60,459 bases of DNA, taken from Bacteroidia bacterium (GTDB taxonomy: Bacteria; Bacteroidota; Bacteroidia; SpSt-205). The notes below the pieces were generated by a model. That model did not search any database and was not told the DNA's origin. It saw only the letters and a program-made list of their open reading frames with translations. Of the stretch, positions 8,101-27,171 are shown piece by piece. Position numbers and translations under genes: made by a program. The stretch covers positions 1 to 60,459 of the forward strand of contig JANWXY010000022.1 of NCBI GenBank assembly GCA_025057135.1, in the 5' to 3' direction. How positions within the stretch are numbered: position 1 is the first letter of the stretch; each line of letters opens with the position of its first letter.

Positions 8101-9345
8101 GACTCCTCAAACAAAGGATGGCTTCCCTTTGGGTTAGTGACTCCTTTCTCTGATAAAGATGCTTCTCAACTCGGATTCGGACTGAACTATTGTCCAGCGA
8201 ACCCGGGGCAGCCTTGCAGTTCCCCTGCACTTTCTAACATCGCTACTCCGCCATGGGAAGGGGTTACTTTGTCTAAGCTTCCGAGCGTCCAAGTGGTGAT
8301 AACACCGGACCGCTCCAAGTGGTCTAAATGTCTGGTGTTAGAAGCCTCCCCCTCTCTCGGTCTAAGTCGTATCGTGGGAGCCGGTAGTCCTCGGGTCGCT
8401 AAATGGCGCCTCAGCCGAGATGTTATTAAGGGCGATACAACTGCTTTCCGAGATGAGCCTTTGTCTGTGTCTTCTCAAGGATTTAGCTGGTTCCCGGGAT
8501 ATGCTATCAACTTAGAAACTGGACAACGAGTGAATATCCTATTTGCCGAAGCGTCATGGTTCCGTGGCGATAATGGAGACGACATGCTCTTCAATCCAAC
8601 CTCCTCTCTCGGCTCCTCCGGAGATGCCTATGGGGGGCGTCACTGGATATTAGTGACCACCTATCCTTATGACGAATGTGCCAAGTTCGCTGAATGGCTC
8701 TGTGTCGCAGATCAACAGCCCACAGGCATAAATACTGTCAACCGTACCTACTTCTTAACCTTCAATAAGCCTGGGGGGAGTAACGTAGTACGCATAGACT
8801 CCTTTTACAAGTACGTAGCGTGGGTATCTCTGCCCCGAGTGGCCGGAAGGCAGTATGAGTTCCGTCACTACAAGGACATTCCGAGCGAGGTGAAGATCAC
8901 CCTTGCGGTGAATAAATCTTACAGACCCGGTCCGAACAATCAGCCCCCTACGTTTAGATTCTCCACTAACGAAATGGCCGCCAGAACTGGAGACCTTGCC
9001 ACCGCTAAAAGCGCGCTGGATATCATACGGATCGTGCCTAATCCATTCTACGGGAAGTCCGGAGTAGGTCGTGGCCGATATGAGATTAGTCAAATAGATA
9101 CCCGGGCCAAAATCACCAACCTCCCTCCACGCTGCACAATACGAATCTTCACATTGAATGGCGTACTCGTTCGCACCTTCCGAAAAGACTCTGAGGAAAC
9201 ATTCATAGAATGGGACCTCAAAAATGAGTTCGGCGTGCCAATTGCCAGCGGGGTTTACATCATACATGTGGATGTTCCCGGTGTCGGACAAAAAGTCATC
9301 AAGTTTTTCGCAATCATGCCACAAGTAGACCTCAATAACTTCTGA
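5149..9345 (+). CDS. Large secreted protein with C-terminal T9SS/FlgD-Ig-like sorting domain, function unknown
   Basis: Signal peptide. C-terminus IRIVPNPF...IRIFTLNGVLVR...WDLKN...IASGVYIIHV...KVIKF is typical of T9SS cargo. Start could be 5149, 5161 or 5167. Confidence 0.8.
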   Translation: MHTIMTMRHIGRIWLLVMLVKWAWGREIMTSVERRIAPRTVSTCTAPTSSVQLDINNVRCLIHNGGDMWWDLVSSPRYEIPKVPPGVPAIHSMFASAVWVGGLDAAGRLRLAAQTYRQSGIDFFAGPLSLQGTTDANTCQQWDKHFVITRQEIDAFRAAFQTNPNNLNLGDYPNVANWPAINPAPGFERTLAPFVDQNNDGDYTPAAGDYPDVLGDMAIWWVYNDRGNVHTETGAPAIGLEVQALAFAFSTTDQINDMTFYKYRIINRGTLSLRQTYMAIWVDADLGFYADDYVGCDTSRGLGYCYNGDPVDDPSGPGYGANPPAIGTDFFQGPIYDPDPVNPKRLKMTNFMYYENDFSVRGNPTNAIHFYNYMRSIWKDGSPLVNNNQNGYGTGTPTNFIYTGHPGGVPAATRCPFPTPTGTWNEATAGNSPFDRRYLQSAGPFTLDPGAVNDIIIGVPWARDITGRYGPGGDGRIGSVCLLYQADDIAQALFDNNFKLVDGPDAPDLEIVELDQELILNWRYKNPLSNNYYENYRQTDPVLRSLGVSDTTYRFEGYLVYQLRDARVSETDLQDPTRAALIAQCDIKNGITTIINREETLLPGQSTPLIVDKVMVNGEDKGLFHSIRVTEDKFAEGTDPRLKNYQRYYFMIVAYAYNGEPTNKRKFLLGRNNVRRYEAIPHKPASRDGGSILASQYGDGIPIQRVSGLGNGGNLLRLSPETEQQLLTPPYQAENPTYLAGFGPFRVRVVDPRQVKSYDYRLVINLDTTIRETLNVAGSEPTIIVKEWELYGKPSGSNAAEQLIYTSWSAISKRLWDYKLNTWNFVLNQHLNGSEKIIPGHGISISVKQVIDPGIEDRFFSGAQYPWLCGSSADTMFYFLQDERNGLINVQIEYSDPTKPWLSYFSPEDFGWGKGPGLSPGQTPTFGASSASDAVQRYSRGCQLTQYPVSLPAGATPLIPFRPSAIRLQPWIYYYDGNIKAFYTDSSNKGWLPFGLVTPFSDKDASQLGFGLNYCPANPGQPCSSPALSNIATPPWEGVTLSKLPSVQVVITPDRSKWSKCLVLEASPSLGLSRIVGAGSPRVAKWRLSRDVIKGDTTAFRDEPLSVSSQGFSWFPGYAINLETGQRVNILFAEASWFRGDNGDDMLFNPTSSLGSSGDAYGGRHWILVTTYPYDECAKFAEWLCVADQQPTGINTVNRTYFLTFNKPGGSNVVRIDSFYKYVAWVSLPRVAGRQYEFRHYKDIPSEVKITLAVNKSYRPGPNNQPPTFRFSTNEMAARTGDLATAKSALDIIRIVPNPFYGKSGVGRGRYEISQIDTRAKITNLPPRCTIRIFTLNGVLVRTFRKDSEETFIEWDLKNEFGVPIASGVYIIHVDVPGVGQKVIKFFAIMPQVDLNNF

Positions 9346-9347
9346 TT

Positions 9348-10448
9348 ATGCGCAGGTATCTCGTTTTACTCACTTTACTCGGAGCTGCTCTGGGAGGCAA
9401 TCCCGAACGAGCCGGTTCAGCTGGCGCTACTCAGCTACTCATCAATCCATATGCCCGAAGCTCGGGAATGGGTGGTATCAATATCGCTAATACTTACGGC
9501 ATAGAAAGCGTTATCATCAATCCCGCAGGCATCGCTCTCACTCGCCGAACAGAGTTCATATTCAGCCATACGCGATGGCTGGTAGGTAGCGATATAAATA
9601 TCAATGCATTTGGTTTTGCTCAGGGCTTCAAAAATGGCGGAACGCTTGGACTGGCTGTAATGGCATTTGATCTTGGACAGTTTGAGCGGACTACGATTGA
9701 CAATCCCGACGGTGGTATTGGCTACTTCTCCCCCACCATGCTGAATATCTCTATATCGTATGCCAAAGTATTTGCTGATGATAGGATATTCGTTGGAGCT
9801 ACGACCAAACTTATCCACGAGTCCATCCCCGATGCGGCAGCCAATGGAGTAGCCTTTGATGCAGGTGTCCAATACCGCGATAAGCAAGGCAATCTCAAGT
9901 TAGGAGTAGCACTTCGGAATATTGGTCCTCAGATGCGCTACAGAGGAGAGGGTCTCACCGCTCGAGCCAACCTCGGCGGCGCAGGCAGTGCATTCACGAG
10001 TCTGGTCAGCACGCCGCCCGCTTCATTCGAGATACCTTCGGTGCTTTTGATTGGCGCTGCATACCGTATCGGAATCGGTGGTGAAGCTGAGTTGAAAGCC
10101 CGAGAGTCTGCCGCCGGAGGCACTGGTGGGGATAGAGACTACCTCTTTTCAATCATCCCCATGCTCGGCTTCTACGCAAACTCATTCCAAAATAACCAGC
10201 TCGGTGGAGGCATAGAGCTCCGCTACAAAAATTACTTCATGATACGCGGGGCATATATGTGGGAGCCTGATATTACCAGTAAGGAAACCACACAGAACGC
10301 CTTCATGGGGATTAACTTTGGAGCTACGGTAGAGCTGCCTTTCCGCACAGGGGAGAACCGATATTCCACATTCGGGATTGACTATAGCTACCGTCCGACT
10401 TACTTCTTCAATGGCACACATAGCATTGGCGCCCGTCTATATTTATGA
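9348..10448 (+). CDS. PorV/PorQ-family outer-membrane beta-barrel
   Basis: Signal peptide, LLINPYARSSGMG and INPAGIA motifs, GVAFDAGVQY, LGVALRNIGP; directly follows a T9SS cargo gene. Confidence 0.85.
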   Translation: MRRYLVLLTLLGAALGGNPERAGSAGATQLLINPYARSSGMGGINIANTYGIESVIINPAGIALTRRTEFIFSHTRWLVGSDININAFGFAQGFKNGGTLGLAVMAFDLGQFERTTIDNPDGGIGYFSPTMLNISISYAKVFADDRIFVGATTKLIHESIPDAAANGVAFDAGVQYRDKQGNLKLGVALRNIGPQMRYRGEGLTARANLGGAGSAFTSLVSTPPASFEIPSVLLIGAAYRIGIGGEAELKARESAAGGTGGDRDYLFSIIPMLGFYANSFQNNQLGGGIELRYKNYFMIRGAYMWEPDITSKETTQNAFMGINFGATVELPFRTGENRYSTFGIDYSYRPTYFFNGTHSIGARLYL

Positions 10449-15050: not shown

Positions 15051-16085
15051 CTATCGAAGGGGCATACTTACCACCTCTACCTCTGGGAAGGTATCCCTTA
15101 CACGCTGTAAATCTGTGTCTGTGAGAAAGGTCTGCATGGCGAGTCGGCTGAGACGACCGAGAGCCGAGAGTCTATCTCTATCTAACTTTTCGCCTACATC
15201 ATCTAAAAGTAAAATGGGTTGTCCCCCTTTTGCCCGTAGGTGGGCAACTTCTGCCCACTTGAGCGCGATAAGGAGTGATTTTTTCTGTCCCTCGGACGCA
15301 TAGCCACGAGCAGGACGCCCATCCAGCCTGAGGATAAAGTCTTCTAGATGAGGACCTATGAGAGTCCTACCCAATCTTTGTTCATCTTTACGCAGTCGCT
15401 GCCAAGCTGATAACCAAGCCTCACGCTCCATTTCTACGGAGAGCTTATAGTTCAGCTCTAAGGGCTCTCCCCCAAAGTGTGTATAAAACTCTGCGAGAAT
15501 AGGCGAGAAATGTTCGCTGAGCTCTTGACGCATCTTCTGGATGCGAATGCCCTCAGAGATGAGAAGGGTTTCCCAAAGCTCCAGTTGAGCGGGCATCACA
15601 TCGGCTCTGCTTAGCAGAGCATTTCGTTGATCTAAGGCGCGCTGGTACCGGCTAAGGGCCTCTAAGTAGGCAGGAGAAATTTGACATAGGAGCTTATCTG
15701 ACCAGCGACGACGCTCGGCGGCACTACCTTCTATCCAGCTTATATCTGCTGGACGCAAAGACACCACTGGGAAGCGCCCTACCCATTGAGACAAAGGCTG
15801 AACCAGCTCTCCCTGCCAGTATAAGCGATTGCCCTTACCTTTCTCATAGAGCAGCTCCACGATACCCTCGGACACCCGAGCACGCAATCGGTAGGCAGAG
15901 CTGCCCCACCGCACCATCTCCTCATCTTTACCGAAGCCGCGCAGAATCGTGAGCTTTTGGATAGCTTCTAAAATGGAGGTCTTGCCAGAGGCATTTGGTC
16001 CGACCCAAGCAGTACCCCTCTCACCCAGTTCAAGGACTATGTGAGCATAACACCTAAAATTTGACAGCTCAATTGCCCGAAGCAC
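15051..16085 (-). CDS. recF: DNA replication/repair ATPase RecF
   Basis: NFRCY, Walker A GPNASGKT, ALDQRNALL, ASEGQKK signature, LLLDD Walker B. Confidence 0.9.
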   Translation of the reverse strand: MLRAIELSNFRCYAHIVLELGERGTAWVGPNASGKTSILEAIQKLTILRGFGKDEEMVRWGSSAYRLRARVSEGIVELLYEKGKGNRLYWQGELVQPLSQWVGRFPVVSLRPADISWIEGSAAERRRWSDKLLCQISPAYLEALSRYQRALDQRNALLSRADVMPAQLELWETLLISEGIRIQKMRQELSEHFSPILAEFYTHFGGEPLELNYKLSVEMEREAWLSAWQRLRKDEQRLGRTLIGPHLEDFILRLDGRPARGYASEGQKKSLLIALKWAEVAHLRAKGGQPILLLDDVGEKLDRDRLSALGRLSRLAMQTFLTDTDLQRVRDTFPEVEVVSMPLR

Positions 16086-16090
16086 CAGTG

Positions 16091-16114
16091 TATCTTTGCT
16101 TCATGGCAAAAGTA
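16091..16114. promoter_or_regulatory. Divergent -7 boxes for pdhA (+) and recF (-)
   Basis: TATCTTTG (16091-16098) lies 4 nt before the pdhA ATG. TACTTTTG on - strand (16114-16107) lies inside the first codons of pdhA. Confidence 0.55.
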
Positions 16115-17119
16115 AAAGCTCCGGAGGTGCAGCCCTACACGCGAGAGCAACTTCTTTTCTGGTATCGGCAAATGTTAGCGGTGCGGCGCATGGAAGAAAA
16201 AGCCGCCCAGCTCTATACCCAACAGAAAATTCGCGGCTTCCTCCATCTATATATCGGACAGGAAGCCACCGGCATGGGCATAGAGGCAGCTATCCGTCCA
16301 GAGGACTATGTCATCACAGGATACCGAGAACATGGAAATGCCTACTTCCGAGGTATCTCCATGCGCGCAATCATGGCAGAACTGATGGCCAAAGAAACGG
16401 GCTGCTCCCGTGGCAAGGGTGGGTCTATGCACATGTTTTCCAAAGAACGACGATTTCTGGGAGGCCACGGAATTGTGGGAGCTCAAATAGGGATTGGCAC
16501 AGGTGTGGCTTTTGCTATCAAGTATCGTGGAGAAGACTTGATTAGCGTGACGATGTTTGGAGACGGAGCCGCTCGCCAAGGCATGCTTCATGAGAGCTTC
16601 AATATGGCTATGCTATGGACACTGCCCGTTTTGTACATATGCGAAAATAATCAGTATGCTATGGGCACTGCAGTCACTCGTAGCTCTAATGTAACAGAAA
16701 TCTATCGCCTCGCTTGCGCATACGACATGCCCTCTCAGAGAGTAGATGGCATGAGTATATTTTCCGTATATGAAGCGGTGCGTCATGCCGCTGAACATAT
16801 TCGTTCAGGAAAAGGGCCATACTTCCTGGAAATAATGACCTACAGATACCGTGGGCACTCCATGTCAGACCCTGCCAAGTATCGTACTCGCGAAGAAGTA
16901 GAAGCGTACAAGGAAAAAGACCCCATAGCCCATTTGCAAAACTATTTATACGAACATCAGCTTGCCACAGAAGCCGACATAGACCGCATAGAAGAAGAGG
17001 TCGCTGCGGAGGTAGCCGATGCTGTGGCTTTCGCAGAAGCGAGTCCTTTCCCTGCCGCAGAGCAGTTGTATGAAGATGTCTATGTGCAGCCAGATTATCC
17101 TTTCCTCAGAGAATGGTGA
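16103..17119 (+). CDS. pdhA: Pyruvate dehydrogenase E1 alpha subunit
   Basis: IRGFLHLYIGQEA, GKGGSMH, GDGA...ENNQY ThDP motif, TYRYRGHSMSDP. Start moved to ATG 16103. Confidence 0.93.
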   Translation: MAKVKAPEVQPYTREQLLFWYRQMLAVRRMEEKAAQLYTQQKIRGFLHLYIGQEATGMGIEAAIRPEDYVITGYREHGNAYFRGISMRAIMAELMAKETGCSRGKGGSMHMFSKERRFLGGHGIVGAQIGIGTGVAFAIKYRGEDLISVTMFGDGAARQGMLHESFNMAMLWTLPVLYICENNQYAMGTAVTRSSNVTEIYRLACAYDMPSQRVDGMSIFSVYEAVRHAAEHIRSGKGPYFLEIMTYRYRGHSMSDPAKYRTREEVEAYKEKDPIAHLQNYLYEHQLATEADIDRIEEEVAAEVADAVAFAEASPFPAAEQLYEDVYVQPDYPFLREW

Positions 17120-18534
17120 AGGTCGGTGCCGCTACTCATCCTGGACGGGTCCGTACCACGAATGAAGACTTCATTTATCACGGACCCACTCCTATCGGGT
17201 ACGTAGGCATTGTATGCGACGGGATGGGGGGGCATGAAGCTGGCGAAGTCGCCGCCCGTATCGCAGCCGAAGCTGCCTATAAGTTCCTATGTGAAGCGCA
17301 GCCTACCCGCGACATGGAAGGGCTATTGCGAGATGCCGTACTCTCCGCCAACCAGCAAATACTTCTGAGGGTACAAGCTCACCCCCAAAGCAAAGCCCCT
17401 GGTTCTACAATCGTAATAGCTCTCATAGACGAGACCCACATCACATTCGCCCATGTGGGCGATAGCCGGCTGTATATGTATCACAAAGGCGAACTCACAC
17501 CTCTGACGCAAGATGACTCCTTGGTGCAGCAGATGTTCTCCTCAGGACTCATCACCGCCGAACAGGCAATCAACCATCCGCAGAAAAATGTCCTTACTCA
17601 AAGTTTAGGACAACATCCCGCCCCGACCCCCCATACAAAACGACTCCCAATAAAAAAGGGAGCTATCTACCTGCTATGCAGTGACGGTCTCTCCAACTCC
17701 CTCTCAAAGGAGGAGCTCACTACTGCTCTGGCTCGTGCCGCCGATACACCGCTGGAAGAGATAGCCAACCTACTCATTCAGCAAGCTAACGCCAACGGAG
17801 GGTACGACAATATCTCTGTGGTGCTCCTGCAGCCCCCTCATAAAACCGCTACCTTTGTAGGTCGTATGAACCTCAAGCTCCCCCCTACGAAGTACCTCAT
17901 CGGTGGTGGCATAGCTATTATCGTCGTAATTCTCGCCGTGATCCTTTTTACCAGAGGGCGCCGCACCCCGCAGACCACAGAGTCCGGAGAAATCGTTATC
18001 ACAGACGACACGACCCCAAGTCCCCAGAACGACAGCACCGCCAGCCTCACAGACTCGGAACTCCCTCCCTCCACCCCCGCAGAAGAAATATCCCCTTCTA
18101 CCCCTCCACCTACTTCTAACCTACCAAACAATCCTCCGTCAGAACTGCCTAAAACCTCCAAATCTACTCCTACTACAAAGAAGCCCACAAAAACTTCAAA
18201 AGAAAATTCTGAATCCTCTTCATCCAATGGAGCAGTCATTGAATACACCATCCAGAAAGGCGATAATCTGCTAAAAATAGCAGAGGCATTCGGCGTTTCG
18301 AGAAATGAAATCAGAAAGATAAACGGGCTGAAGGACGATAACATCAAGGTAGGTAAGAAACTCAAGATTCCAGTCAAGGCCGTACAAACTCATGTGGTTG
18401 GGGAAAAAGAGACTCTCTCTGGCATAGCGAGGAAATATGGTACTCGGGTAGAAGCTATAAAGCGAGCCAACGGCTTAGAAGATGAAAAAATCCGAGAAAA
18501 GCAGAAGCTAATTATCCCAATTCTGAAAAAATGA
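17113..18534 (+). CDS. PP2C/Stp1-type Ser/Thr phosphatase fused to a TM helix, Pro/Ser/Thr linker and two LysM domains
   Basis: PP2C motifs RTTNED, CDGMGGH, HVGDSR, LLCSDGL, GGYDN. TM segment LIGGGIAIIVVILAVILF. LysM repeats YTIQKGDNL...LKIP and HVVGEKETL...LIIP. Confidence 0.85.
   Translation: MVKVGAATHPGRVRTTNEDFIYHGPTPIGYVGIVCDGMGGHEAGEVAARIAAEAAYKFLCEAQPTRDMEGLLRDAVLSANQQILLRVQAHPQSKAPGSTIVIALIDETHITFAHVGDSRLYMYHKGELTPLTQDDSLVQQMFSSGLITAEQAINHPQKNVLTQSLGQHPAPTPHTKRLPIKKGAIYLLCSDGLSNSLSKEELTTALARAADTPLEEIANLLIQQANANGGYDNISVVLLQPPHKTATFVGRMNLKLPPTKYLIGGGIAIIVVILAVILFTRGRRTPQTTESGEIVITDDTTPSPQNDSTASLTDSELPPSTPAEEISPSTPPPTSNLPNNPPSELPKTSKSTPTTKKPTKTSKENSESSSSNGAVIEYTIQKGDNLLKIAEAFGVSRNEIRKINGLKDDNIKVGKKLKIPVKAVQTHVVGEKETLSGIARKYGTRVEAIKRANGLEDEKIREKQKLIIPILKK
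17850..17857 (+). promoter_or_regulatory. Putative internal -7 box before in-frame Met252 (ATG 17866)
   Basis: Exact TACCTTTG 8 nt before an in-frame ATG located between the PP2C domain and the TM-LysM part. Confidence 0.4.
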
Positions 18535-20099
18535 GCACGCTGATTGGCAAAAAGCTGCTCAACTATAAAGTAGAAAAGCTCCTCGGTCAAGGAGGAATGG
18601 GTGAGGTGTACCTCGGGGTACATACCGAAATAGGGCGTAAGGTCGCTATCAAAATGATCAGCCCACATTTGGCTCGCGACCCACGCATCCAAGAGCGCTT
18701 CAAACGAGAAGCCCTCATCATGGCTAAGCTCAATCACCCCAACATAGTCCAGTTATACGACTACTGGGCTCGTCCTGATGAAGGTCTCTTTCTGATCATG
18801 GAGTATGTGGAGGGGATATCATTGGACCGCTATATTCATCGGGTACAGTGCGGACCGCTTCCCCCCAAACAGGCGATAGACATTTTCCTTCAAGTTCTGG
18901 ATGCGTTTGAATACGCACATAAAAATGGAGTCATTCACCGAGATATCAAGCCCAGTAATATCCTCCTACGCACAGATAATGTAGTCAAAGTATTAGATTT
19001 CGGCATAGCTCGGATTATTAGCACAGAGACTAACGACCCAGCTGAATCTCCCTCCCTGACAAAAACTGGCACCACCTTAGGCACTGTATCCTACATGAGC
19101 CCAGAACAGCTCCGCTCCAAAAGCGCTGGCGATATAGACCACCGTTCAGATATCTACTCGTTGGGTGTAGTGTTATTTGAAATGCTAACTGGACGAGAAC
19201 TGTATGACCGCTCTCAACTGTCAGAATTTGAGATATTGGTGAAAATAGCCACTGAACCCCCTCCCCCGCTATCCGAGCTAAACCCCAAAATCGCCCCTGA
19301 TTTTGAACCCATCCTCAAAAAAGCTCTCGCAAAGAACCGAGAAGATCGCTACCAATCTTGTCAAGAGTTCGCCGCAGCTCTCTTACCGCTTATACCCAAG
19401 TATGACAAACCAGATAGCCCACCCCCTGTGCGCAATCCCGCTCTGACCAAAACACAAGTTTCTAATGTCCCCCCTACCCCTTCTCCTAAGATAGAGCCAT
19501 CTAAAAAAGAAGAGCTGAAAAAGCCCTCCAGCCAGGCTGTTTCTGGAAAGCAGCGGCGAGTGATCATGATAAGCGGAATAGCCGCATTACTCATCATAGC
19601 AGCCGTGCTGTGGTGGCAGATGAACTACTCAGCCGCCCGAAATAAAGCCTTAGCCATAGCCGATTCTTTTTCCGTAGCGCTCAATCGCCATGATGAAAAG
19701 CTGCTCGCCAGTCTATTCGCTGATACTTTATCTCCCTTCTATTCGGAAGAAAAAGTTCCTAAGACCCAAGCGCTGCAAAAGTACTTCGCGAGTTTCTGGA
19801 AAAGCATCCAAAAAGACTCTGTCTCTTGGATGACCCCCCCAGAATATAAGCGAGAAGGCGGCACGACCATTGTAGAAGGCACTCTTTACCAACATTACAC
19901 ACCGAAACCCCAAATAGTTACGCAGGTAGAACAGGCACCAGCAGGTCGACAAGCTTGGCGAAGAGCTATTACACCTCGCAGAACCATAACCCGAGAAGTG
20001 CCCTTGCCTCCGATATGCAAAATCAAAAGGCTGAAGATATTCATTTCCGATGAAAAAATCAGGGGCATTCAGCTTTTAGACACTCGGGATTGTCCTTGA
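18531..20099 (+). CDS. Membrane-anchored Hanks-type Ser/Thr kinase with small extracytoplasmic domain
   Basis: GQGGMG, VAIK, HRDIKPSN, DFG, GTVSYMSPE, DIYSLG; Pro-rich linker; TM IMISGIAALLIIAAVLWW. Confidence 0.93.
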   Translation: MSTLIGKKLLNYKVEKLLGQGGMGEVYLGVHTEIGRKVAIKMISPHLARDPRIQERFKREALIMAKLNHPNIVQLYDYWARPDEGLFLIMEYVEGISLDRYIHRVQCGPLPPKQAIDIFLQVLDAFEYAHKNGVIHRDIKPSNILLRTDNVVKVLDFGIARIISTETNDPAESPSLTKTGTTLGTVSYMSPEQLRSKSAGDIDHRSDIYSLGVVLFEMLTGRELYDRSQLSEFEILVKIATEPPPPLSELNPKIAPDFEPILKKALAKNREDRYQSCQEFAAALLPLIPKYDKPDSPPPVRNPALTKTQVSNVPPTPSPKIEPSKKEELKKPSSQAVSGKQRRVIMISGIAALLIIAAVLWWQMNYSAARNKALAIADSFSVALNRHDEKLLASLFADTLSPFYSEEKVPKTQALQKYFASFWKSIQKDSVSWMTPPEYKREGGTTIVEGTLYQHYTPKPQIVTQVEQAPAGRQAWRRAITPRRTITREVPLPPICKIKRLKIFISDEKIRGIQLLDTRDCP

Positions 20100-20169
20100 A
20101 AACCCGACTCGTACTGATAGAGTCGCAGATATTTATATCTAACATAGAAAAGCGTACCTTTGCGATACC

Positions 20170-21507
20170 ATGGCAAAATCGGATGAGCAAAGCAAACTAC
20201 CCACGGGAAAGGTGGCGCGCGCCTCGCATTTTTTGAAAGGTGGATTACGCGTCGGTGCAAATGTAGTTAAACATCAAGCTAAAAAGCTCCTCGGCAAGGA
20301 AGTGTCTCGTGACGACTTAGACCGAGAAAACGCCGAGGACCTTTTGAAGACATTTACACAGCTGCGCGGCTCAGCTTTGAAAGTTGCTCAGACTATATCG
20401 TTAGACACGATAAACTTTTCAAAATCTTTCGTGGAGGTAATGCAAAATGCCCAATACAGTGTACCTCCTATGAGTGGGCCCATGGTAGTGCAAGTATTCA
20501 AACGGAGTATTGGACAGCCTCCCGAAAAGGTTTTTGACAAGTTCAACATTCATGCCATCCGAGCAGCCTCTCTCGGTCAAGTCCATGAAGCGTGGAAAGA
20601 CGGTAAAAAACTCGCCGTCAAAATTCAATACCCCGGCGTCGCAGAATCTATCCAGTCCGACATGAAGATTTTTCGGACATTCGCCCCCCGGATAACTCGC
20701 ATTCCCCTGGAAGAGTTGGAGCCTTACATTCAAGAGATGGAAGAGAAGTTTCTGGAGGAGGCGGATTACCGTAAGGAGCTGCAAAACTCTCTCGCTTTCA
20801 AGGAGCTGTGCAAAAACTTCCCTAACTTGCGGTTTCCAGAGTACTATCCCGAGCTATGTGGAGATAAAGTGCTGACCATGGAGTGGCTAGAGGGGCTCCA
20901 CTTGCGAGAGTACCTCGCCACGAATCCCCCCTACGAAGAGAAACAGCATTTTGGACAAATCATCTGGGACTTTTACAGCTTCCAGATTCATGCGCTGCGC
21001 CAGGTAAATGCCGACCCTCATCCGGGAAACTTTCTCTTTCGCAAGGACGGCACGCTGGGAGTAATAGACTTTGGATGCACAAAACTCATACCGGAGGAGC
21101 TGTATAAAGCTTATTTTTCTCTGGGTGACCCTAAAATCTACGAACCCAAAAACCGCAAAAAGTTAGACGCCACATTTGAGAAACTGGCTCTATACAGGGA
21201 GGATGATACACCCGAAGAGCGAGAATATGTGCGTGACCTTTTTAGCCGCTTCGCTCAAATACTGGCCACCCCTTATAGATTAGGAAAGATGGACTTCCGT
21301 CAAACAGATTTCTTTGAAGCCCTCAATAGCGTCGGAGAGGAAATAGCCCGAACCCGTGAACTGAGAGGGCTGAAAGACTTTTTATTTCTCAACCGAACTT
21401 TCCTCGGACTCTTTAATCTATTTCATCAGCTTGGGGTAGAGTTAGACACGCGCTGCGAATATCTCCCCTATTACGACTATAGCCATTTATCAGCATCCCC
21501 ATCCTAA
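20170..21507 (+). CDS. ABC1/AarF/UbiB-family atypical kinase
   Basis: LRGSALKVAQ, AASLGQVH, AVKIQYPG, ADPHPGNF, IDFGC. Confidence 0.92.
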   Translation: MAKSDEQSKLPTGKVARASHFLKGGLRVGANVVKHQAKKLLGKEVSRDDLDRENAEDLLKTFTQLRGSALKVAQTISLDTINFSKSFVEVMQNAQYSVPPMSGPMVVQVFKRSIGQPPEKVFDKFNIHAIRAASLGQVHEAWKDGKKLAVKIQYPGVAESIQSDMKIFRTFAPRITRIPLEELEPYIQEMEEKFLEEADYRKELQNSLAFKELCKNFPNLRFPEYYPELCGDKVLTMEWLEGLHLREYLATNPPYEEKQHFGQIIWDFYSFQIHALRQVNADPHPGNFLFRKDGTLGVIDFGCTKLIPEELYKAYFSLGDPKIYEPKNRKKLDATFEKLALYREDDTPEEREYVRDLFSRFAQILATPYRLGKMDFRQTDFFEALNSVGEEIARTRELRGLKDFLFLNRTFLGLFNLFHQLGVELDTRCEYLPYYDYSHLSASPS

Positions 21508-22712
21508 TCTCTTTCTGTAAAGTCTAACGATACCCCGAAAGTCTCCCGCAGGCGACTCGCCGACCATAGCGCTACGCCGTACAATATAAGCCCTGTAAAT
21601 AAAGCGCTACCCCGGAGTGACAGATAGCCCTGAAATCCCTCCCACAGAAAAGTAGAGAGCACCAGAGAGCCCCTAATCCAGTTGGGCACGCTGGTAGCTA
21701 CAGTAGCCCGAAGGTTAGTGCCGAACTGCTCTGCCGAGCTGGTGATGAGCACCGCCCAGTATCCAGAAAACATACCGAGTAAAAGAGCCAACCCATACAC
21801 CATTTCCACCGAAGAAAACGTCATCAAATTATAAACCACAGAGAGTAATAGGCTGACACTTAGCCACAAAAGCACAGGCTTTTTACGACTGCGTGTGACT
21901 TGACTGAGTATGCCGGCGAGTAGATCACCTATTGACAAGCCGATATAAGCATACATGACCGCTCGCCCTGCACGCACAGGCAGGCCGGCTTCCTTGAAAA
22001 GATCAGGCGCAAAAGTGATAAGTATCCCTATCACATACCATATAGGAACTCCGGCTAAGACTGCATATACATACCGAGCCAACCGTTCTCTCCGGCGAAA
22101 AATCTGGAAAAAATCCCCCATAGGCACCTCTCCGTGCTGACGCAGCGACTCAAACAGTCCTGACTCTCCAACGCCTATGCGTAAAAGCAGCAACAAAAGC
22201 CCCATTCCTCCTCCGATAAAGTAAGCATACCGCCAAGGAAATAAGTCTCCAACTAAGCTGGCTACAACTGCTCCCAAAATACCCAGCGTAGCTATCAAGG
22301 TGGTTCCCCACCCTCTCAAATGCGGCGGCATGATCTCAGCCACAAGCGTGACCCCAGCTCCCAACTCTCCTGCTAACCCAATCCCAGCTATAAACCGCCA
22401 TATCGCATACCCATAGACGCTCTCTACGAGACCGTTGAAGATATTTGCAAGCGAGTAGGTCAAAATTGACCCAAATAAGATAGAGAGCCTCCCTCTTTTA
22501 TCGGCTAAAACGCCCCATATCAGCCCACCTATGAGCATGCCTATCATCTGGAGATTGATGAGGAGCACACCATACCTCAGTTTTTCTGCCCCTGCATACC
22601 CTAAATCAGTCAAGCTGGCTTCTCTCACCACAGAAAATAATATCAGGTCGTAAATATCCACGAAGTACCCCAAAGTAGCTACGATGACCGCCAACCAAAC
22701 CTTACGTGTCAT
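21504..22712 (-). CDS. MFS transporter
   Basis: About 12 hydrophobic segments, GVLADKRGR motif A, RFIAGIGLAGE, EQFGTNLRAT. Confidence 0.9.
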   Translation of the reverse strand: MTRKVWLAVIVATLGYFVDIYDLILFSVVREASLTDLGYAGAEKLRYGVLLINLQMIGMLIGGLIWGVLADKRGRLSILFGSILTYSLANIFNGLVESVYGYAIWRFIAGIGLAGELGAGVTLVAEIMPPHLRGWGTTLIATLGILGAVVASLVGDLFPWRYAYFIGGGMGLLLLLLRIGVGESGLFESLRQHGEVPMGDFFQIFRRRERLARYVYAVLAGVPIWYVIGILITFAPDLFKEAGLPVRAGRAVMYAYIGLSIGDLLAGILSQVTRSRKKPVLLWLSVSLLLSVVYNLMTFSSVEMVYGLALLLGMFSGYWAVLITSSAEQFGTNLRATVATSVPNWIRGSLVLSTFLWEGFQGYLSLRGSALFTGLILYGVALWSASRLRETFGVSLDFTERD

Positions 22713-22793: not shown

Positions 22794-25688
22794 CTACTCT
22801 GCACTCTCCGCTTTCTTCGTGCTCAGAGCCCCAAAGCTCCAGTTCATCCCAATGAAGACCTGCCGGGGCGGTAGGTAGCGTGCCGGATCAGTAGGAGGCA
22901 AACCTGTATCTAAGGGGTTTGGATATTTAGGGTCTCGCCAACCATTAGGCACATCGTCAGGATACTCGTAAGCGCGTCCAGTAACGGGATTTATGATGGC
23001 GGCATTTTTCCAGCTGAAAATATTCCGCCCTTCTATAAAGACTGATAATCGCCCCCGCAGAAAGTTCCGCGTGATGCGCATATCTACCCATCGCCATGGA
23101 CTACCGATGGCAGTATTCGGAGGACCATCTACCCGCTCATACACTGGACGCCCGGAAAAATCATCCCGACCTGCAAGCTGTACGGGTGTATACCGAAGAC
23201 CGGATTTCCATGTCATTGATATGAATACGGTCCATTCTCTAAGCCAAGAAGAATTCCAGGCTCCGGGGGACTTAAGAATGCTCCACAGCTTGATATCCCA
23301 AGGACGGTCCCATGCAAGGAAAAACTCCTGCGTCGCATCGTTTCTTCCACTCTGCCGAATCTGTAAAAGAGACTCTAACGCCGAGTTTGATTTGCCAGTA
23401 GCGACCTGATAGGTTACAGACCCTGCCAATCGCAGCCAGTCGCCTAATTGGCGTTGAAGAAAAATATCCACACCTCGCACTCGAGCATAGTCTAAGTTGG
23501 CTGCGAAGACCCGCTCAGTAAAGCGCCCTGTCTGGTCCCGAATAGTGATAATACGATTGACGATAAAGTCAAATTTATCGTTGTAGAAAGCGCTTGCCTG
23601 CAGGGCCCAGCCTCTACCGAGATTGGATTTTAGACCAATCTCATAGCCTACATTTACCTCGGGATTGAGATTGGGATTACCCAAGAAAGCAAGAAAAGAG
23701 CGATCCTGATAAACGGGGTCCAATCCAGCATATACGAAACGCGGGTGCGGCAGCCGCGTGGAATGGGCGTAGTTGAAGAATAGCACATGATTATCCGTAA
23801 CCGGAAAGGATACTCGCAACCTCGGGAGGAGCCGAGCTTTGAATCTACGACCTAAAATCAATGCTGTCTGCTTTTTGTAAGCCTGTCGGACAGCATCAAC
23901 GATAGGCGCCCGAGGGTCTTCCACAGCTACATCCACGAAAGCCCCAGGTGCCCAGTATGTGAAGCGGGCACCTAAGCTCGCCACTATGCCTTTGTACCGA
24001 ATCCTATCCTCAAAAAAGATGCCCCCCGTGGCAGGCTTGACTCTCCAAATGTCGTTACTCACCCCAATCCTATTAGCAGCATACACCTGCCCATCATCTA
24101 ACCGAATAGGAGCACCTACCCATGGACGACTTACATCTATCCACTGATAATGCTGCTCTCGGTGCTCCAACCCAAATATCCAGAAATGCGATGTACTCTT
24201 GGGTTGAAAAGTGAGCTTGAGCTTGAAGGTGTATTCCTCAGCGAAATGATCATGCCAGAGAGTCGCTATACCTCCGTTATTGAAAAGTCCAGGTCCCGGA
24301 TTCACATAGATGATGCTGTCGTTGGGATTGAAAACTGTGACGGGGTCAGTAACGATAGAAGCGGGGTCATAAATCTGCCTTATCACCGAGTCTCGGAATG
24401 GACGCCCATTCGCATCCGCCCGAAGGTTGACAAAAAGCCGACTTAGCGTCAGCTCCCCAGTCCATACCCGAGACAAGATACGATTGAGTTTCAGAATAGT
24501 GAGGTTAGACCGATGGGTATAAGTGTTAGCGTTATCCGGCTGAAGCATGAAAGCGTACTGAAAACCTGGGACCATAACCTGGTCGCTACCGATGATTTGA
24601 AGGGAGCGCGTGTTCTGATTGATACCGAGGCTTTGTTGTACAGAAAGGGAAAGGCGCGTCCGAGGGTCTATACGATAGGCGAGTTTCACGGTGCTGGACC
24701 ATTTATTATCTTGCCGAGGCGCAAAAAACTCACTTTTTGTCGGGCCACCTAAAAGACGACTGATTGAGGGGAAAATAACATCTCGTCCTTCGGCTTCTTC
24801 TATGAGGCTACTCCTGAGCTGCCGAGCTTGTACTCCGAAGTACTCATCCGTCAGGCGCAAGTCAAAGCTCCCGAAGAAGGTCAAACGCGGCTTTCCTGTG
24901 GAGTCTCTCCATAGAGGCCCGCCAGCACCGAGATTGAAAATATCCGTATTCCAGCCCCATTGAGATATAGCCCCCCCGAGCTGATCTTTCATATATCTGC
25001 CATAGAAACGCCAGCGCTCCCCTCCTTCTTTCAGACGAACTGCTACCACCCCCGAAGTACCATCTCCGTACTCAGCATCTACCCCTCCAGTGATGACTTC
25101 CAGCTCCTCTATGGCGACCTGAGAAACTTCTACTCCAAAGCCCGTACCAGCGAGGGGGTCCTGTGCATTTACTCCATCAACGACATATTGGGTCTCATAC
25201 ACGCGTCCTCCCCGAATCTGTAGCCCATCCAAAGTCTGGGCCACGCCAGGCATGAGAGTAGCCATAGTTTGAACATCCACAGCCGTCGTCTGAGTAATCT
25301 CATCTCCGCTAATTTTCAAGTCCGACTTACCAGACTCTAAATTTACCAGTGGTTTGTCCCCCACGATTTCTACCGTCTGCAAGGTGGTACCAGTAGGCGT
25401 GAGCGAAAGATTGAGCTGAAGGGTCTGATCCGCCTTGACGATAATGCCCGTAAGCTGCAGCTCATTATACCCGACATATGACACCCGCAAGGTGTAAGTA
25501 CCGGGCACAACTTCGGTAATGATGAATCGCCCGTTTTCATCCGTATAGGCGCCCTTGTAAGTACCAACGAGCGCAACAGAAGCTCCAATGAGAGGTTCTT
25601 TTGTACTCTTATCTGCTACGACTCCCGCTATCGTGGCTTTCTGGGCCCACAGACCTGTCAGTATGATGAATAAGACAAGCCTTCTCAT
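22794..25688 (-). CDS. TonB-dependent receptor with CarboxypepD_reg-like N-domain
   Basis: Signal peptide, IAGVVAD...EPLIGASV, IRGGR...YVVDG plug, GGVDAEYG, GNPNLNPE. Confidence 0.9.
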   Translation of the reverse strand: MRRLVLFIILTGLWAQKATIAGVVADKSTKEPLIGASVALVGTYKGAYTDENGRFIITEVVPGTYTLRVSYVGYNELQLTGIIVKADQTLQLNLSLTPTGTTLQTVEIVGDKPLVNLESGKSDLKISGDEITQTTAVDVQTMATLMPGVAQTLDGLQIRGGRVYETQYVVDGVNAQDPLAGTGFGVEVSQVAIEELEVITGGVDAEYGDGTSGVVAVRLKEGGERWRFYGRYMKDQLGGAISQWGWNTDIFNLGAGGPLWRDSTGKPRLTFFGSFDLRLTDEYFGVQARQLRSSLIEEAEGRDVIFPSISRLLGGPTKSEFFAPRQDNKWSSTVKLAYRIDPRTRLSLSVQQSLGINQNTRSLQIIGSDQVMVPGFQYAFMLQPDNANTYTHRSNLTILKLNRILSRVWTGELTLSRLFVNLRADANGRPFRDSVIRQIYDPASIVTDPVTVFNPNDSIIYVNPGPGLFNNGGIATLWHDHFAEEYTFKLKLTFQPKSTSHFWIFGLEHREQHYQWIDVSRPWVGAPIRLDDGQVYAANRIGVSNDIWRVKPATGGIFFEDRIRYKGIVASLGARFTYWAPGAFVDVAVEDPRAPIVDAVRQAYKKQTALILGRRFKARLLPRLRVSFPVTDNHVLFFNYAHSTRLPHPRFVYAGLDPVYQDRSFLAFLGNPNLNPEVNVGYEIGLKSNLGRGWALQASAFYNDKFDFIVNRIITIRDQTGRFTERVFAANLDYARVRGVDIFLQRQLGDWLRLAGSVTYQVATGKSNSALESLLQIRQSGRNDATQEFFLAWDRPWDIKLWSILKSPGAWNSSWLREWTVFISMTWKSGLRYTPVQLAGRDDFSGRPVYERVDGPPNTAIGSPWRWVDMRITRNFLRGRLSVFIEGRNIFSWKNAAIINPVTGRAYEYPDDVPNGWRDPKYPNPLDTGLPPTDPARYLPPRQVFIGMNWSFGALSTKKAESAE

Positions 25689-27094
25689 GGCTGCAAAGCG
25701 TTTTGGAGAGCTGTAAGAAACGCAATCCTATCTCCTCCTAACTGATGGACAGGCAGGATACATAAAATCTGACGGAACTTGCCCCCGCCTATGGGGAAGC
25801 CAACCGCCGCCGCACGACTAAGCGAACTCGGCCAAGGCTGCCCATTCCCTTGAAAAAGGTTAGGCATCTCGTAGATAATCGTTGCAGTACCTTTCGGATA
25901 AGGTGGATTGATGCTACTCATGAAAAATGGCAGCCCGTTAGTAAGGTTAGGAAACCCCGTCTGAGTAGAGCTAACGCTACTACCAGAAGCTAAAAGCCCG
26001 TTTTGTTGGACCTTAGATATGCTATCAGCCGGGGACCAGCGGAATATCGGCGAGCTTTCTCCTAAATCGTGCCGCAAAGGTAGATTGACAAATAATCGCC
26101 CCCCTCCGCTGAGGTACTGCTCTATTAGCGTTTCCGAGACCTCAAACTCTTCGGTACTGGGTTGACTACCTATCCAGTAGACGCGCGGATAAGCCCGAAG
26201 GATGTGCAGCCACGTGGGAAGCCTCAAAGGAGGACGCTGAGTAGCTCTACGAAGGTTCCAGTAATCATAGCCTCCCCACGCCTGGCGAAACAATCCGTCC
26301 ATAGTATCTATCGCAGTATTATCCGTCCAGCTGTCCATGACGAGCCAATCGGAATTTTTACGCCGTAGAAAGATTGTATTCGTACTGTCTATTTCTGAGA
26401 AAAGCCCCCCTTGATCCTTAGCTCGGACATACAACCGTAAGGTATCATCCAGGGGAAGGGCAGTAGGTATCGTGAAAGCAGGGTTGAGCGAACTACCTAC
26501 ATATACCAAAGTGGGCGAAAGCGCCGAAGGATTTTGCGGAACTAAGGTTAGGAGTGTATGTCTCGGGGAAAACGGCGTCCAACTGCCCGCCGAGCCGATA
26601 CGAATATATACGCTGTCCACGCTCTCCCGCCCATCCGGGTCGTCTATAACTATAGACAGAGTAATCGCTATTAGAGCGGTATCGGGCGGCGCAATACTGG
26701 CGTCTATTCTACAGGTAGGCGGTGAGTTCCTGAGAGGAACGCGAAGACGAGCTGGGGGCTCCGTCCGTAATCCGTCATTGTCCACGGCTCGCAGCTCAAA
26801 TATCACATCCTTATACTGTGTCCCTGGCTCAAATGATACCACAAAAGTGCTTTCCTGAGCCGTGGTGAAGCTCCATGGCCCGCCATTTATACGGAGTTCG
26901 TATCCAACAACATAGCCATCAGGATCATCGCCTGACCAACTCAAACTAAACCGAGACGGTAGCCTATCCTCCTGCTCTAATCCAATAGAGTCTAAAAAGA
27001 AACGAGCCAGAGGCGCTTGGCGTGGAATCGGATTATCCTTCTTACGACAAGCAAAGGGGAAAGCTACCAACCAGAGCCACCAAAGTCGCTTCAT
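25685..27094 (-). CDS. Putative outer-membrane lipoprotein with Ig/FN3-like repeats
   Basis: MKRLWWLWLVAFPFAC lipobox-like; repeated motifs SWSGDDPDG / IDDPDG and RAVDNDG / RAKDQGG. Overlaps the TBDR start (ATGA). Confidence 0.7.
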   Translation of the reverse strand: MKRLWWLWLVAFPFACRKKDNPIPRQAPLARFFLDSIGLEQEDRLPSRFSLSWSGDDPDGYVVGYELRINGGPWSFTTAQESTFVVSFEPGTQYKDVIFELRAVDNDGLRTEPPARLRVPLRNSPPTCRIDASIAPPDTALIAITLSIVIDDPDGRESVDSVYIRIGSAGSWTPFSPRHTLLTLVPQNPSALSPTLVYVGSSLNPAFTIPTALPLDDTLRLYVRAKDQGGLFSEIDSTNTIFLRRKNSDWLVMDSWTDNTAIDTMDGLFRQAWGGYDYWNLRRATQRPPLRLPTWLHILRAYPRVYWIGSQPSTEEFEVSETLIEQYLSGGGRLFVNLPLRHDLGESSPIFRWSPADSISKVQQNGLLASGSSVSSTQTGFPNLTNGLPFFMSSINPPYPKGTATIIYEMPNLFQGNGQPWPSSLSRAAAVGFPIGGGKFRQILCILPVHQLGGDRIAFLTALQNALQP

Positions 27095-27171
27095 CCATGT
27101 CAAAAATACCCTTCCAGTGCTAAGCTACGGTAAAGGCATCGGGTACGATTTTTGTCCCTACTTTTGAGAAT

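Follow-up and report, generated by a model that had tools for sequence, protein, structure and literature searches.

PstP (Rv0018c), of Mycobacterium tuberculosis and M. smegmatis, is a Ser/Thr phosphatase of the PP2C family. In the cited sections of bioRxiv 10.1101/2022.02.28.482390 it is described as possessing a cytoplasmic, N-terminal PP2C domain, one transmembrane helix, and a C-terminal extracytoplasmic domain, as well as being enriched at the septum, with its authors proposing regulation by access to substrates. The portion of a review from 2018, on Hanks kinases and phosphatases in bacteria, that is drawn upon here (PMC6213207) has PstP encoded along with Hanks kinases and also has phosphatase genes abutting kinase genes in the Stp1, IreP, and PrpC systems, i.e., those involving the PASTA kinases Stk1, IreK, PrkC, and PknB. 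Considered here is a gene of the same catalytic family (NF033484), found at 17113..18534 on the plus strand of a 60,459-nucleotide stretch of DNA from a hot-spring Bacteroidia bacterium (contig JANWXY010000022.1 of assembly GCA_025057135.1). This stretch, at its full length, is termed the window. The gene's 473-residue product has the layout of PstP, but the outer domain of PstP is not LysM, as it is, twice over, in the window protein. We view as a little better than an even prospect that this is a wall-tethered phosphatase which opposes a co-translated kinase, and whose place in the membrane is set by LysM-glycan contact. A first-pass annotation of the window, made from sequence, had taken the phosphatases of such systems to be usually soluble, a generalization with which PstP, as a membrane PP2C bearing an extracellular domain, does not agree.

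PstP is the best match to the window phosphatase in terms of both sequence and fold, a comparison made with solved chains that takes in the catalytic domain only (query residues 4-240). The best sequence match, that is, is to M. tuberculosis PstP 1TXO (E 6.7e-38), with Streptococcus agalactiae Stp1 (2PK0) aligned as well, in neither case with large gaps. By Foldseek PstP and Stp1 also are the best fold matches to the predicted model (for 1TXO, TM(target) 0.92 and root-mean-square deviation 2.0). Genomic contexts nevertheless differ, with PstP found within the fhaA-fhaB-pstP-rodA-pbpA-pknA-pknB cluster of a monoderm-type actinobacterium, whereas the window gene is located beside a pyruvate dehydrogenase (PDH) E1 alpha gene and a single kinase gene in a diderm Bacteroidia.

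The window gene is one intact open reading frame (ORF) with an ATG start. That it encodes, as a whole, a bitopic phosphatase with a PP2C domain, a transmembrane helix, a linker, and two LysM domains is supported by the ORF itself, by domain matches, by conservation, and by contig coverage. From the N-terminus, all on the plus strand, these parts are a presumably cytoplasmic PP2C catalytic domain of the Stp1/IreP/PstP type (residues 8-239; 17134..17829), a conserved juxtamembrane segment reading ...K..TF...MN.KLPP.KY, predicted as cytoplasmic and matching no family (residues 243-261; 17839..17895), the single transmembrane helix (residues 262-280; 17896..17952), a Pro/Ser/Thr-rich, disordered, and presumably periplasmic linker (residues 283-375; 17959..18237), and then LysM domain 1 (residues 378-420; 18244..18372) and LysM domain 2 (residues 427-469; 18391..18519). 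The first-pass annotation had described just this succession of PP2C domain, one transmembrane helix, spacer, and two LysMs within one ORF, and the description is borne out, with a spacer of 93 residues versus the ~95 claimed. Its further statement that the PP2C domain is intact also appears to stand, as based on an NF033484 match above cut-off and on invariant motif residues.

The NF033484 (Stp1/IreP PP2C) match is, in fact, above its cut-off by a small margin, at 231.8 versus 230 bits, though it extends over nearly the whole of the model, aligning residues 8-239 with model positions 2-231 of 232. Pfam PP2C_2 matches residues 14-211 (E 1.1e-16), and the Pfam PP2C model is matched as well. The motif residues of the family all are present, i.e., R14, N17-E18-D19, D36-G37-M-G-G-H41, G116-D-S-R119, D191-G, and D232-N, and each lines up with its counterpart in PstP and Stp1. 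Among 58 aligned relatives D19, D36, G37, D191, and D232 are invariant (58 of 58), with R14 found in 56. The positions of those five residues we take, from structures of PstP and other PP2Cs, to be metal-binding or otherwise catalytic. In an AlphaFold2 model built with 58 relatives (mean predicted local distance difference test, or pLDDT, of 85) the PP2C domain scores above 90 over residues 1-240, and it adopts the beta-sandwich fold of PP2C enzymes. Overall, then, the phosphatase domain looks to be catalytically intact and active.

The LysM pair, too, is recognized by profile. Pfam LysM (PF01476) matches over two stretches (E 2.4e-27; 95 bits versus a cut-off of 20.9), with the first copy at 54.1 bits and the second at 48.1. 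Both are modeled as beta-alpha-alpha-beta (E-H-H-E) units, with pLDDT greater than 95, and within LysM1 the residues G383, D384, N385, and L386 are invariant in the family. In PDB entries 4UZ2/4UZ3, of an NlpC/P60 endopeptidase from Thermus thermophilus, there is a tandem LysM with which the window pair, spacer included, aligns residue for residue (E 9e-17; chain positions 4-95 against query 8-100), and the pair aligns as well with LytE (8I2E). Pfam models for LYK-type LysM give weak, overlapping matches (PF23473, 41 bits). LysM2 in this phosphatase and in its closest relatives reads E-K-E-T-L versus the K-G-D-N-L of LysM1, with K432 replacing the motif Gly. From its similarity to these sugar-binding LysMs, the pair would be expected to bind peptidoglycan.

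Conservation differs substantially by region. Mean identity to the window protein within its family is 57% for the PP2C domain, 60% for the juxtamembrane segment, 52% for the transmembrane helix, 21% for the linker, and 62% for each of LysM1 and LysM2. Because LysM identity equals or exceeds that of the PP2C domain, and the linker is at 21%, the LysM pair would appear to be under selection that is as strong as that acting on the enzyme. The linker, by contrast in composition as well, is 54% Pro plus Ser plus Thr over its 93 residues (S 19%, T 18%, P 17%), has no Pfam match even at E values up to 10, scores under 50 in pLDDT over the greater part of 290-370, and ranges in length from 69 to 97 residues within the family and from 16 to 150 residues among distant relatives. 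Just outside of the membrane, though within the linker, there nonetheless is a conserved motif, GE-I/V-I-I-x-D-D, at about residues 293-299.

A single membrane segment is found by hydropathy, at residues 262-280 (Kyte-Doolittle 2.92, with the second-best window at 1.05), and AlphaFold2 places a helix at 258-281. The same hydropathy scan reveals no signal-like hydrophobic segment at the N-terminus. Charges flanking the helix are +3/0 on its N side (net +3) and +3/-2 on its C side (net +1). Because there is no signal peptide, there is but one transmembrane segment, the N flank is the more positive, and the enzyme requires the cytoplasm, we infer an N-in/C-out topology, which, in this diderm, would make the LysM pair periplasmic. 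The phosphatase possesses no Cys beyond residue 189, i.e., none outside of the cytoplasmic domain. The same placement, in the periplasm of a Gram-negative cell, had been suggested on first reading; the predicted topology agrees with it, and TonB-dependent receptors along with outer-membrane protein barrels are encoded within the same window.

Could the fusion be an artefact, that is, two genes joined by mis-assembly or by a frameshift within the low-complexity linker? The linker is indeed low-complexity DNA, which is error-prone in assemblies, and one relative does have the gene in pieces. The order to which the window genome belongs is represented by 18 genomes in the collection used, of which 15 carry the gene as a full-length, single ORF. 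The three others consist of two incomplete genomes (65% and 77% complete), with PP2C-only matches, and G011, in which the phosphatase gene is found as three pieces. At that locus (L044; G011:C3:6500-13500), in a 10-contig assembly, the E1 alpha and phosphatase genes both are split and the kinase gene is whole. Since the splitting extends to the adjoining E1 alpha gene, the G011 splits probably are indel errors of assembly rather than decay of the gene. The window genome itself is 2.08 Mb and 98% complete. The stretch at 16900-20200, moreover, is present in contigs of hot springs metagenome runs from three studies. One contig, of run X1, spans all of it, though the window may have been derived from that very contig. 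Run X3 belongs to a different study, and two of its contigs, which overlap, take in 16900-18710 and differ by 4 substitutions, without an indel. The sole indel seen, at 20099, is an A missing from the X1 and X2 contigs, within the A-run that begins in the stop codon of the kinase (TGAAAAC), and it leaves the stop intact. Contigs of both X1 and X3 thus span the phosphatase gene without an indel, a single ORF is found also in eight distant genomes, and 160 of 376 retrieved proteins carry PP2C ahead of LysM, so that an artefact is of nearly negligible probability. Against the refuting condition set on first reading, that homologs or reads would show two separate genes, homologs and the contigs of a second study point to a single gene.

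The gene directly downstream, at 18531..20099 on the plus strand, encodes a 522-residue Hanks Ser/Thr kinase (Pkinase E 1.5e-59) that consists of a kinase domain at residues 12-277, a transmembrane helix at 344-362, preceded by KKKRR, and an NTF2-like domain at approximately 365-522. It thus has the same layout as the phosphatase, i.e., cytoplasmic enzyme, transmembrane helix, and C-terminal outer domain, and both proteins are predicted to be bitopic with periplasmic domains. The kinase domain is complete, with HRD, DFG, and a Thr-rich activation loop. The kinase start overlaps the phosphatase stop by 4 nt (ATGA), and a kinase is found directly downstream of the phosphatase in all 15 of the relatives fetched. 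The two genes may be co-transcribed, and the kinase presumably is the phosphatase's partner. Sigma-70 promoter scanning over 15800-21700, which does not cover Bacteroidota promoters, gave 5 promoter-like sites versus 5.5 expected, and terminator scanning over the same interval gave 10 terminator-like sites versus 6.7 expected, which is chance level.

The kinase's C-terminal domain (~155 residues, encoded at 19638-20096) has no Pfam match at E values up to 10 save for a chance-level match to SAND. Its Atlas model, however, matches NTF2-like clusters (SnoaL_4/DUF4440) with TM 0.66-0.71. An Atlas cluster of Acidobacteriota kinases displays a similar C-terminal fold. Two of its cysteines, C496 and C521, are shared by all 16 kinase orthologs, which fits with a putative disulfide within an oxidizing periplasm. 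The PASTA-kinase model NF033483 reaches only 330 bits on this kinase, versus a cut-off of 450, and over just positions 9-369 of 563. Complex prediction using kinase residues 366-522 and phosphatase residues 283-473 gave a score of 0.00 and a mark of 0.32, which is not evidence either way.

There are, in the genome as a whole, four Hanks kinases, three PP2C genes, and three FHA domains, plus LysM matches in seven frames, none of these at a kinase position. No PASTA or LysM is found on any of the four Hanks kinases. By sequence, because none of these four carries LysM or PASTA, the only recognizable peptidoglycan-binding module of the kinase/phosphatase pair is located on the phosphatase. The first-pass annotation had spoken of an 'inverted logic', with wall recognition shifted from kinase to phosphatase, and to that extent the idea holds up, though the partner kinase does possess a transmembrane helix and an NTF2-like periplasmic domain of its own. 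Two further arrangements are seen among the signaling genes of this genome. Three PASTA repeats are found at G000:C73:6309-6929, in a 275-residue frame that is apart from all four kinases, a stand-alone PASTA protein in a diderm. At G000:C51:51205-53635, two FHA frames lie directly upstream of a second PP2C gene (359 residues), recalling the actinobacterial fhaA-fhaB-pstP order.

How widespread is this design? Three similarity searches, which do not amount to a random sample, returned 376 proteins. PP2C and LysM are found together in 160 of these, with PP2C coming first in every one, and exactly one transmembrane segment is predicted between the two in 155 of the 160. Nearly all of the named PP2C-LysM proteins are from Bacteroidota, including cultured Rhodocytophaga rosea, Microscillaceae, and metagenome-assembled genomes (MAGs) of Bacteroidales, plus one MAG labeled as Alphaproteobacteria. 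They are found in their sources under such names as 'Stp1/IreP family PP2C-type Ser/Thr phosphatase', 'LysM peptidoglycan-binding domain-containing protein', and 'PrpC/LysM repeat protein'. The design consequently is no rarity: it is common in Bacteroidota and is automatically annotated in public databases. Related membrane PP2Cs of Bacteroidota have, in place of LysM, either PF07603 or no recognizable outer domain. Full-text searches, with subscription journals and supplements outside of their scope, found no paper on a bacterial PP2C-LysM protein, and the above-noted 2018 review contains neither 'LysM' nor 'Bacteroid' (PMC6213207). What distinguishes the variant considered here is its intact active site along with a fixed, putative E1 alpha-phosphatase-kinase operon.

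Among 301 Bacteroidia genomes that were sampled evenly, any match at E 1e-10 is found in 44, and full-length matches by that search are confined to the nine genomes of the window's family. Eight further genomes, from three other families, encode PP2C plus LysM in a single ORF of 449-511 residues, for a total of at least 17 of the 301. A similarity search of genome contigs covered the LysM part in 4 of the 80 loci kept (L053, L054, L055, and L075), all labeled as Bacteroidota MAGs, with the rest being generic PP2C. The eight distant PP2C-LysM loci display no kinase, E1 alpha, or common neighbour within the 4-15 kb fetched; PdxJ is upstream in three f12 loci. At LysM-less membrane PP2C loci a kinase is downstream in three of four. 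At two f66 loci, L047:6265-6999 and L049:1846-2604, a gene of 244 or 252 residues directly follows the PP2C-LysM gene and matches only the transmembrane-linker-LysM-LysM part (query 258-470), i.e., an outer module that lacks a phosphatase. Finally, a FastTree analysis was made of 299 PP2C domains, 113 of them with LysM, following the dropping of 36 with incomplete PP2C and of 41 close family members (12 representatives were kept). On this tree the presence or absence of LysM must change 32 times, and in four clades, of 16 tips (window included), 36, 18, and 10, the LysM-positive share is 85% or more. A tree of so short a domain, made by so quick a method, does not allow a count of fusion gains.

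What might such a protein do? It would be an active Ser/Thr phosphatase of the PP2C (PPM) family and of Stp1/IreP/PstP type, anchored in the inner membrane with its catalytic domain facing the cytoplasm, and its flexible linker of ~93 residues would allow the LysM pair to reach peptidoglycan and there bind glycan strands. The phosphatase would be made together with the downstream Hanks kinase and would undo that kinase's phosphorylation both of its substrates and of its own activation loop. The LysM pair, in turn, would be mainly a tether or 'address label', one restricting the phosphatase's position in the membrane, with the most plausible location being under peptidoglycan that is undergoing remodelling, such as at the division site. 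The balance between kinase and phosphatase then would depend on place and on the state of the wall, with no conformational signal needed through the linker. Localization, that is, presumably would be the mode of control of the phosphatase.

The first-pass annotation had left it that the phosphatase is either tethered to or senses peptidoglycan. Of these, tethering, i.e., localization, is the more economical reading. Because the linker is disordered, poorly conserved, and of variable length, it provides no rigid path along which a signal might travel, and an allosteric receptor is less likely than a tether for that reason. The septal enrichment of PstP, with the control by substrate access that its authors propose, is a precedent pointing in the same direction. 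Several considerations nevertheless weigh against the tether. The searches made found no experimental data on this or any other PP2C-LysM protein. Conserved motifs flank the membrane inside and out, and these short stretches hint at protein contacts, for which tethering does not account. The binding of sugar by LysM2 is less certain owing to its Lys in place of the Gly of the G-D/E motif. As no kinase is found within the 4-15 kb fetched at the eight distant loci, the fixed kinase partnership is a feature of the window's family only. In addition, regulation by ligand-induced clustering may be compatible with a flexible linker.

That last point leads to a receptor-type phosphatase, as the first-pass annotation had named it, one in which peptidoglycan fragments or nascent glycan, upon binding to the LysM pair, change phosphatase activity. 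With this linker they would do so by way of clustering or dimerization rather than a conformational relay, making it a sign-inverted counterpart of the PASTA kinases. This we consider doubtful, though it is the most credible of the alternatives. It would make ready sense of the pair's only peptidoglycan-binding module being found on the phosphatase, with the kinases of the genome lacking LysM or PASTA, of a LysM pair no less conserved than the catalytic domain, and of conserved juxtamembrane motifs on both sides of the transmembrane helix. The nearest solved tandem LysM (4UZ2/4UZ3), too, reportedly binds sugar chains between molecules. Such a receptor nonetheless would have to act via 93 disordered residues that vary in sequence and in length, and the searches made retrieved no case of a PP2C being regulated by dimerization. 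The sacculus, furthermore, is a permanent, saturating ligand, so that occupancy should change little unless some rare form of glycan is preferred. A more elaborate version, which seems to us unlikely and somewhat more so than the receptor as such, has the LysM pair as a signal input that prefers a particular glycan state (for instance, muropeptides that have been released, or strands that are newly made, denuded, or not cross-linked), with binding gathering the phosphatase and thereby altering the rate at which kinase marks are erased. Diderm Bacteroidota lacking PASTA kinases would, by this means, 'read' the wall via the eraser rather than via the writer, and in the window's family the output might reach PDH, the E1 alpha gene being putatively coupled to the pair in translation.

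E1 alpha might be brought in more directly, as a target of the kinase/phosphatase pair, with the LysM tether coupling carbon flux to wall growth, though this strikes us as quite improbable. The E1 alpha of PDH and of the branched-chain alpha-keto acid dehydrogenase (BCKDH) in mitochondria is dephosphorylated by PP2C-family enzymes, and one of these, the BCKDH phosphatase PPM1K, is among the fold matches to the window phosphatase (4DA1, 6AK7). The window's E1 alpha is of the TIGR03182 type and includes the loop ...YRGHSMSDP..., within which mitochondrial E1 alpha is phosphorylated, the phosphate there being removed by PP2C-family phosphatases; the stop of the window's E1 alpha gene overlaps the phosphatase start, and 14 of the 15 relatives fetched share the succession of E1 alpha, phosphatase, and kinase. 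Catalysis, however, keeps that loop constant across all such E1 enzymes, and so it is uninformative as to regulation. Adjacency within one family, likewise, represents a single inherited arrangement, with E1 alpha nearby at none of the eight distant loci, and the phosphatase evolves much faster (45-72% identity) than does E1 alpha (75-93%). Less credible by some distance is that the transmembrane-linker-LysM portion is a TonB/TolA-like arm energized by an ExbB-ExbD motor, with PP2C as its cytoplasmic accessory. TonB and TolA do have a transmembrane helix, a Pro-rich linker, and a C-terminal wall-binding domain, which the window protein's outer portion resembles, and at one distant locus (L045:1940-5151; f42) ExbB and ExbD are encoded directly downstream on the same strand. 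But that linkage is seen at just one of the eight distant loci, with same-genus L052 having an enoyl-CoA hydratase gene there instead, and ExbB/ExbD are next to the gene neither in the window nor in its 15 family relatives. The transmembrane helix, moreover, has no His or polar signature, and PP2C here is fully intact.

The LysM pair of the wall-tethered phosphatase that we favor represents a defined ligand-binding module, one for which the ligands, peptidoglycan and N-acetylglucosamine (GlcNAc) oligomers, are cheap to test, as an outer domain on a PstP-like enzyme. It could be used to show whether membrane PP2C phosphatases are positioned by the wall, regulated by the wall, or both. This bears on how diderms that lack PASTA kinases link Ser/Thr signaling to the envelope, and, with the design frequent in Bacteroidota, one or more cultured species among them, whatever is learned would carry over to a large number of genomes. 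For the specialist the design is attractive and easily tested, rather than astonishing.

As to the remaining genes, the PDH E1 alpha gene is located at 16061..17119 on the plus strand (TIGR03182, 467.5 bits versus a cut-off of 393.85; YRGHSMSDP loop), with its stop overlapping the phosphatase start by 7 nt (ATGGTGA). It is upstream in 14 of the 15 relatives fetched, the fifteenth contig beginning inside of the phosphatase gene. A PDH E3 gene is found at 31-1530 on the minus strand, and E1 beta candidates are found on other contigs. Other neighbours in the window include RecF and an ABC1 kinase. Long ORFs of 1398, 366, and 472 residues (5149-9345, 9348-10448, and 25685-27103, respectively) have no Pfam match at E 1e-5, and on the minus strand, at 53602-60459, a frame of more than 2270 residues runs off of the window's end.

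Beyond PstP, the window phosphatase can be set against several known systems. E. coli NlpD and Caulobacter DipM have, as here, LysM joined by disordered linkers. These are outer-membrane lipoproteins or soluble periplasmic regulators of wall hydrolases, however, and unlike here include no cytoplasmic signaling enzyme. By analogy, the phosphatase may work like a periplasmic LysM localizer, of the NlpD or DipM sort, that has been welded to a signaling enzyme. The T. thermophilus NlpC/P60 endopeptidase (4UZ2, 4UZ3, 4XCM) carries a LysM pair that aligns with this one, but does so on a secreted wall hydrolase. FtsN, DamX, and DedD have a short cytoplasmic part, one transmembrane helix, a long Pro/Gln-rich linker, and a C-terminal, peptidoglycan-binding domain that targets them to the septum. 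Their layout thus is similar to that of the window protein, but their wall domain is SPOR rather than LysM and their cytoplasmic part is a short peptide rather than an enzyme.

Plant LysM receptor kinases (CERK1, NFR1/5, LYK) likewise combine a LysM ectodomain, one transmembrane helix, and a cytoplasmic enzyme of phospho-signaling. These are type I proteins that have three tightly packed, disulfide-linked LysMs beside the membrane and a kinase output. The window protein, by contrast, is type II by prediction, with two C-terminal LysMs, no outer Cys, a 93-residue linker, and a phosphatase output, and the plant receptors are, as a consequence, only a loose analogue. With PASTA systems, the resemblance is found instead in the catalytic family of the phosphatase and in the arrangement of the genes, phosphatase beside kinase. 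The defining feature of those systems is lacking here, in that their wall-binding repeats (PASTA) are on the kinase, whereas here it is the phosphatase which carries LysM, with the kinase bearing an NTF2-like outer domain.

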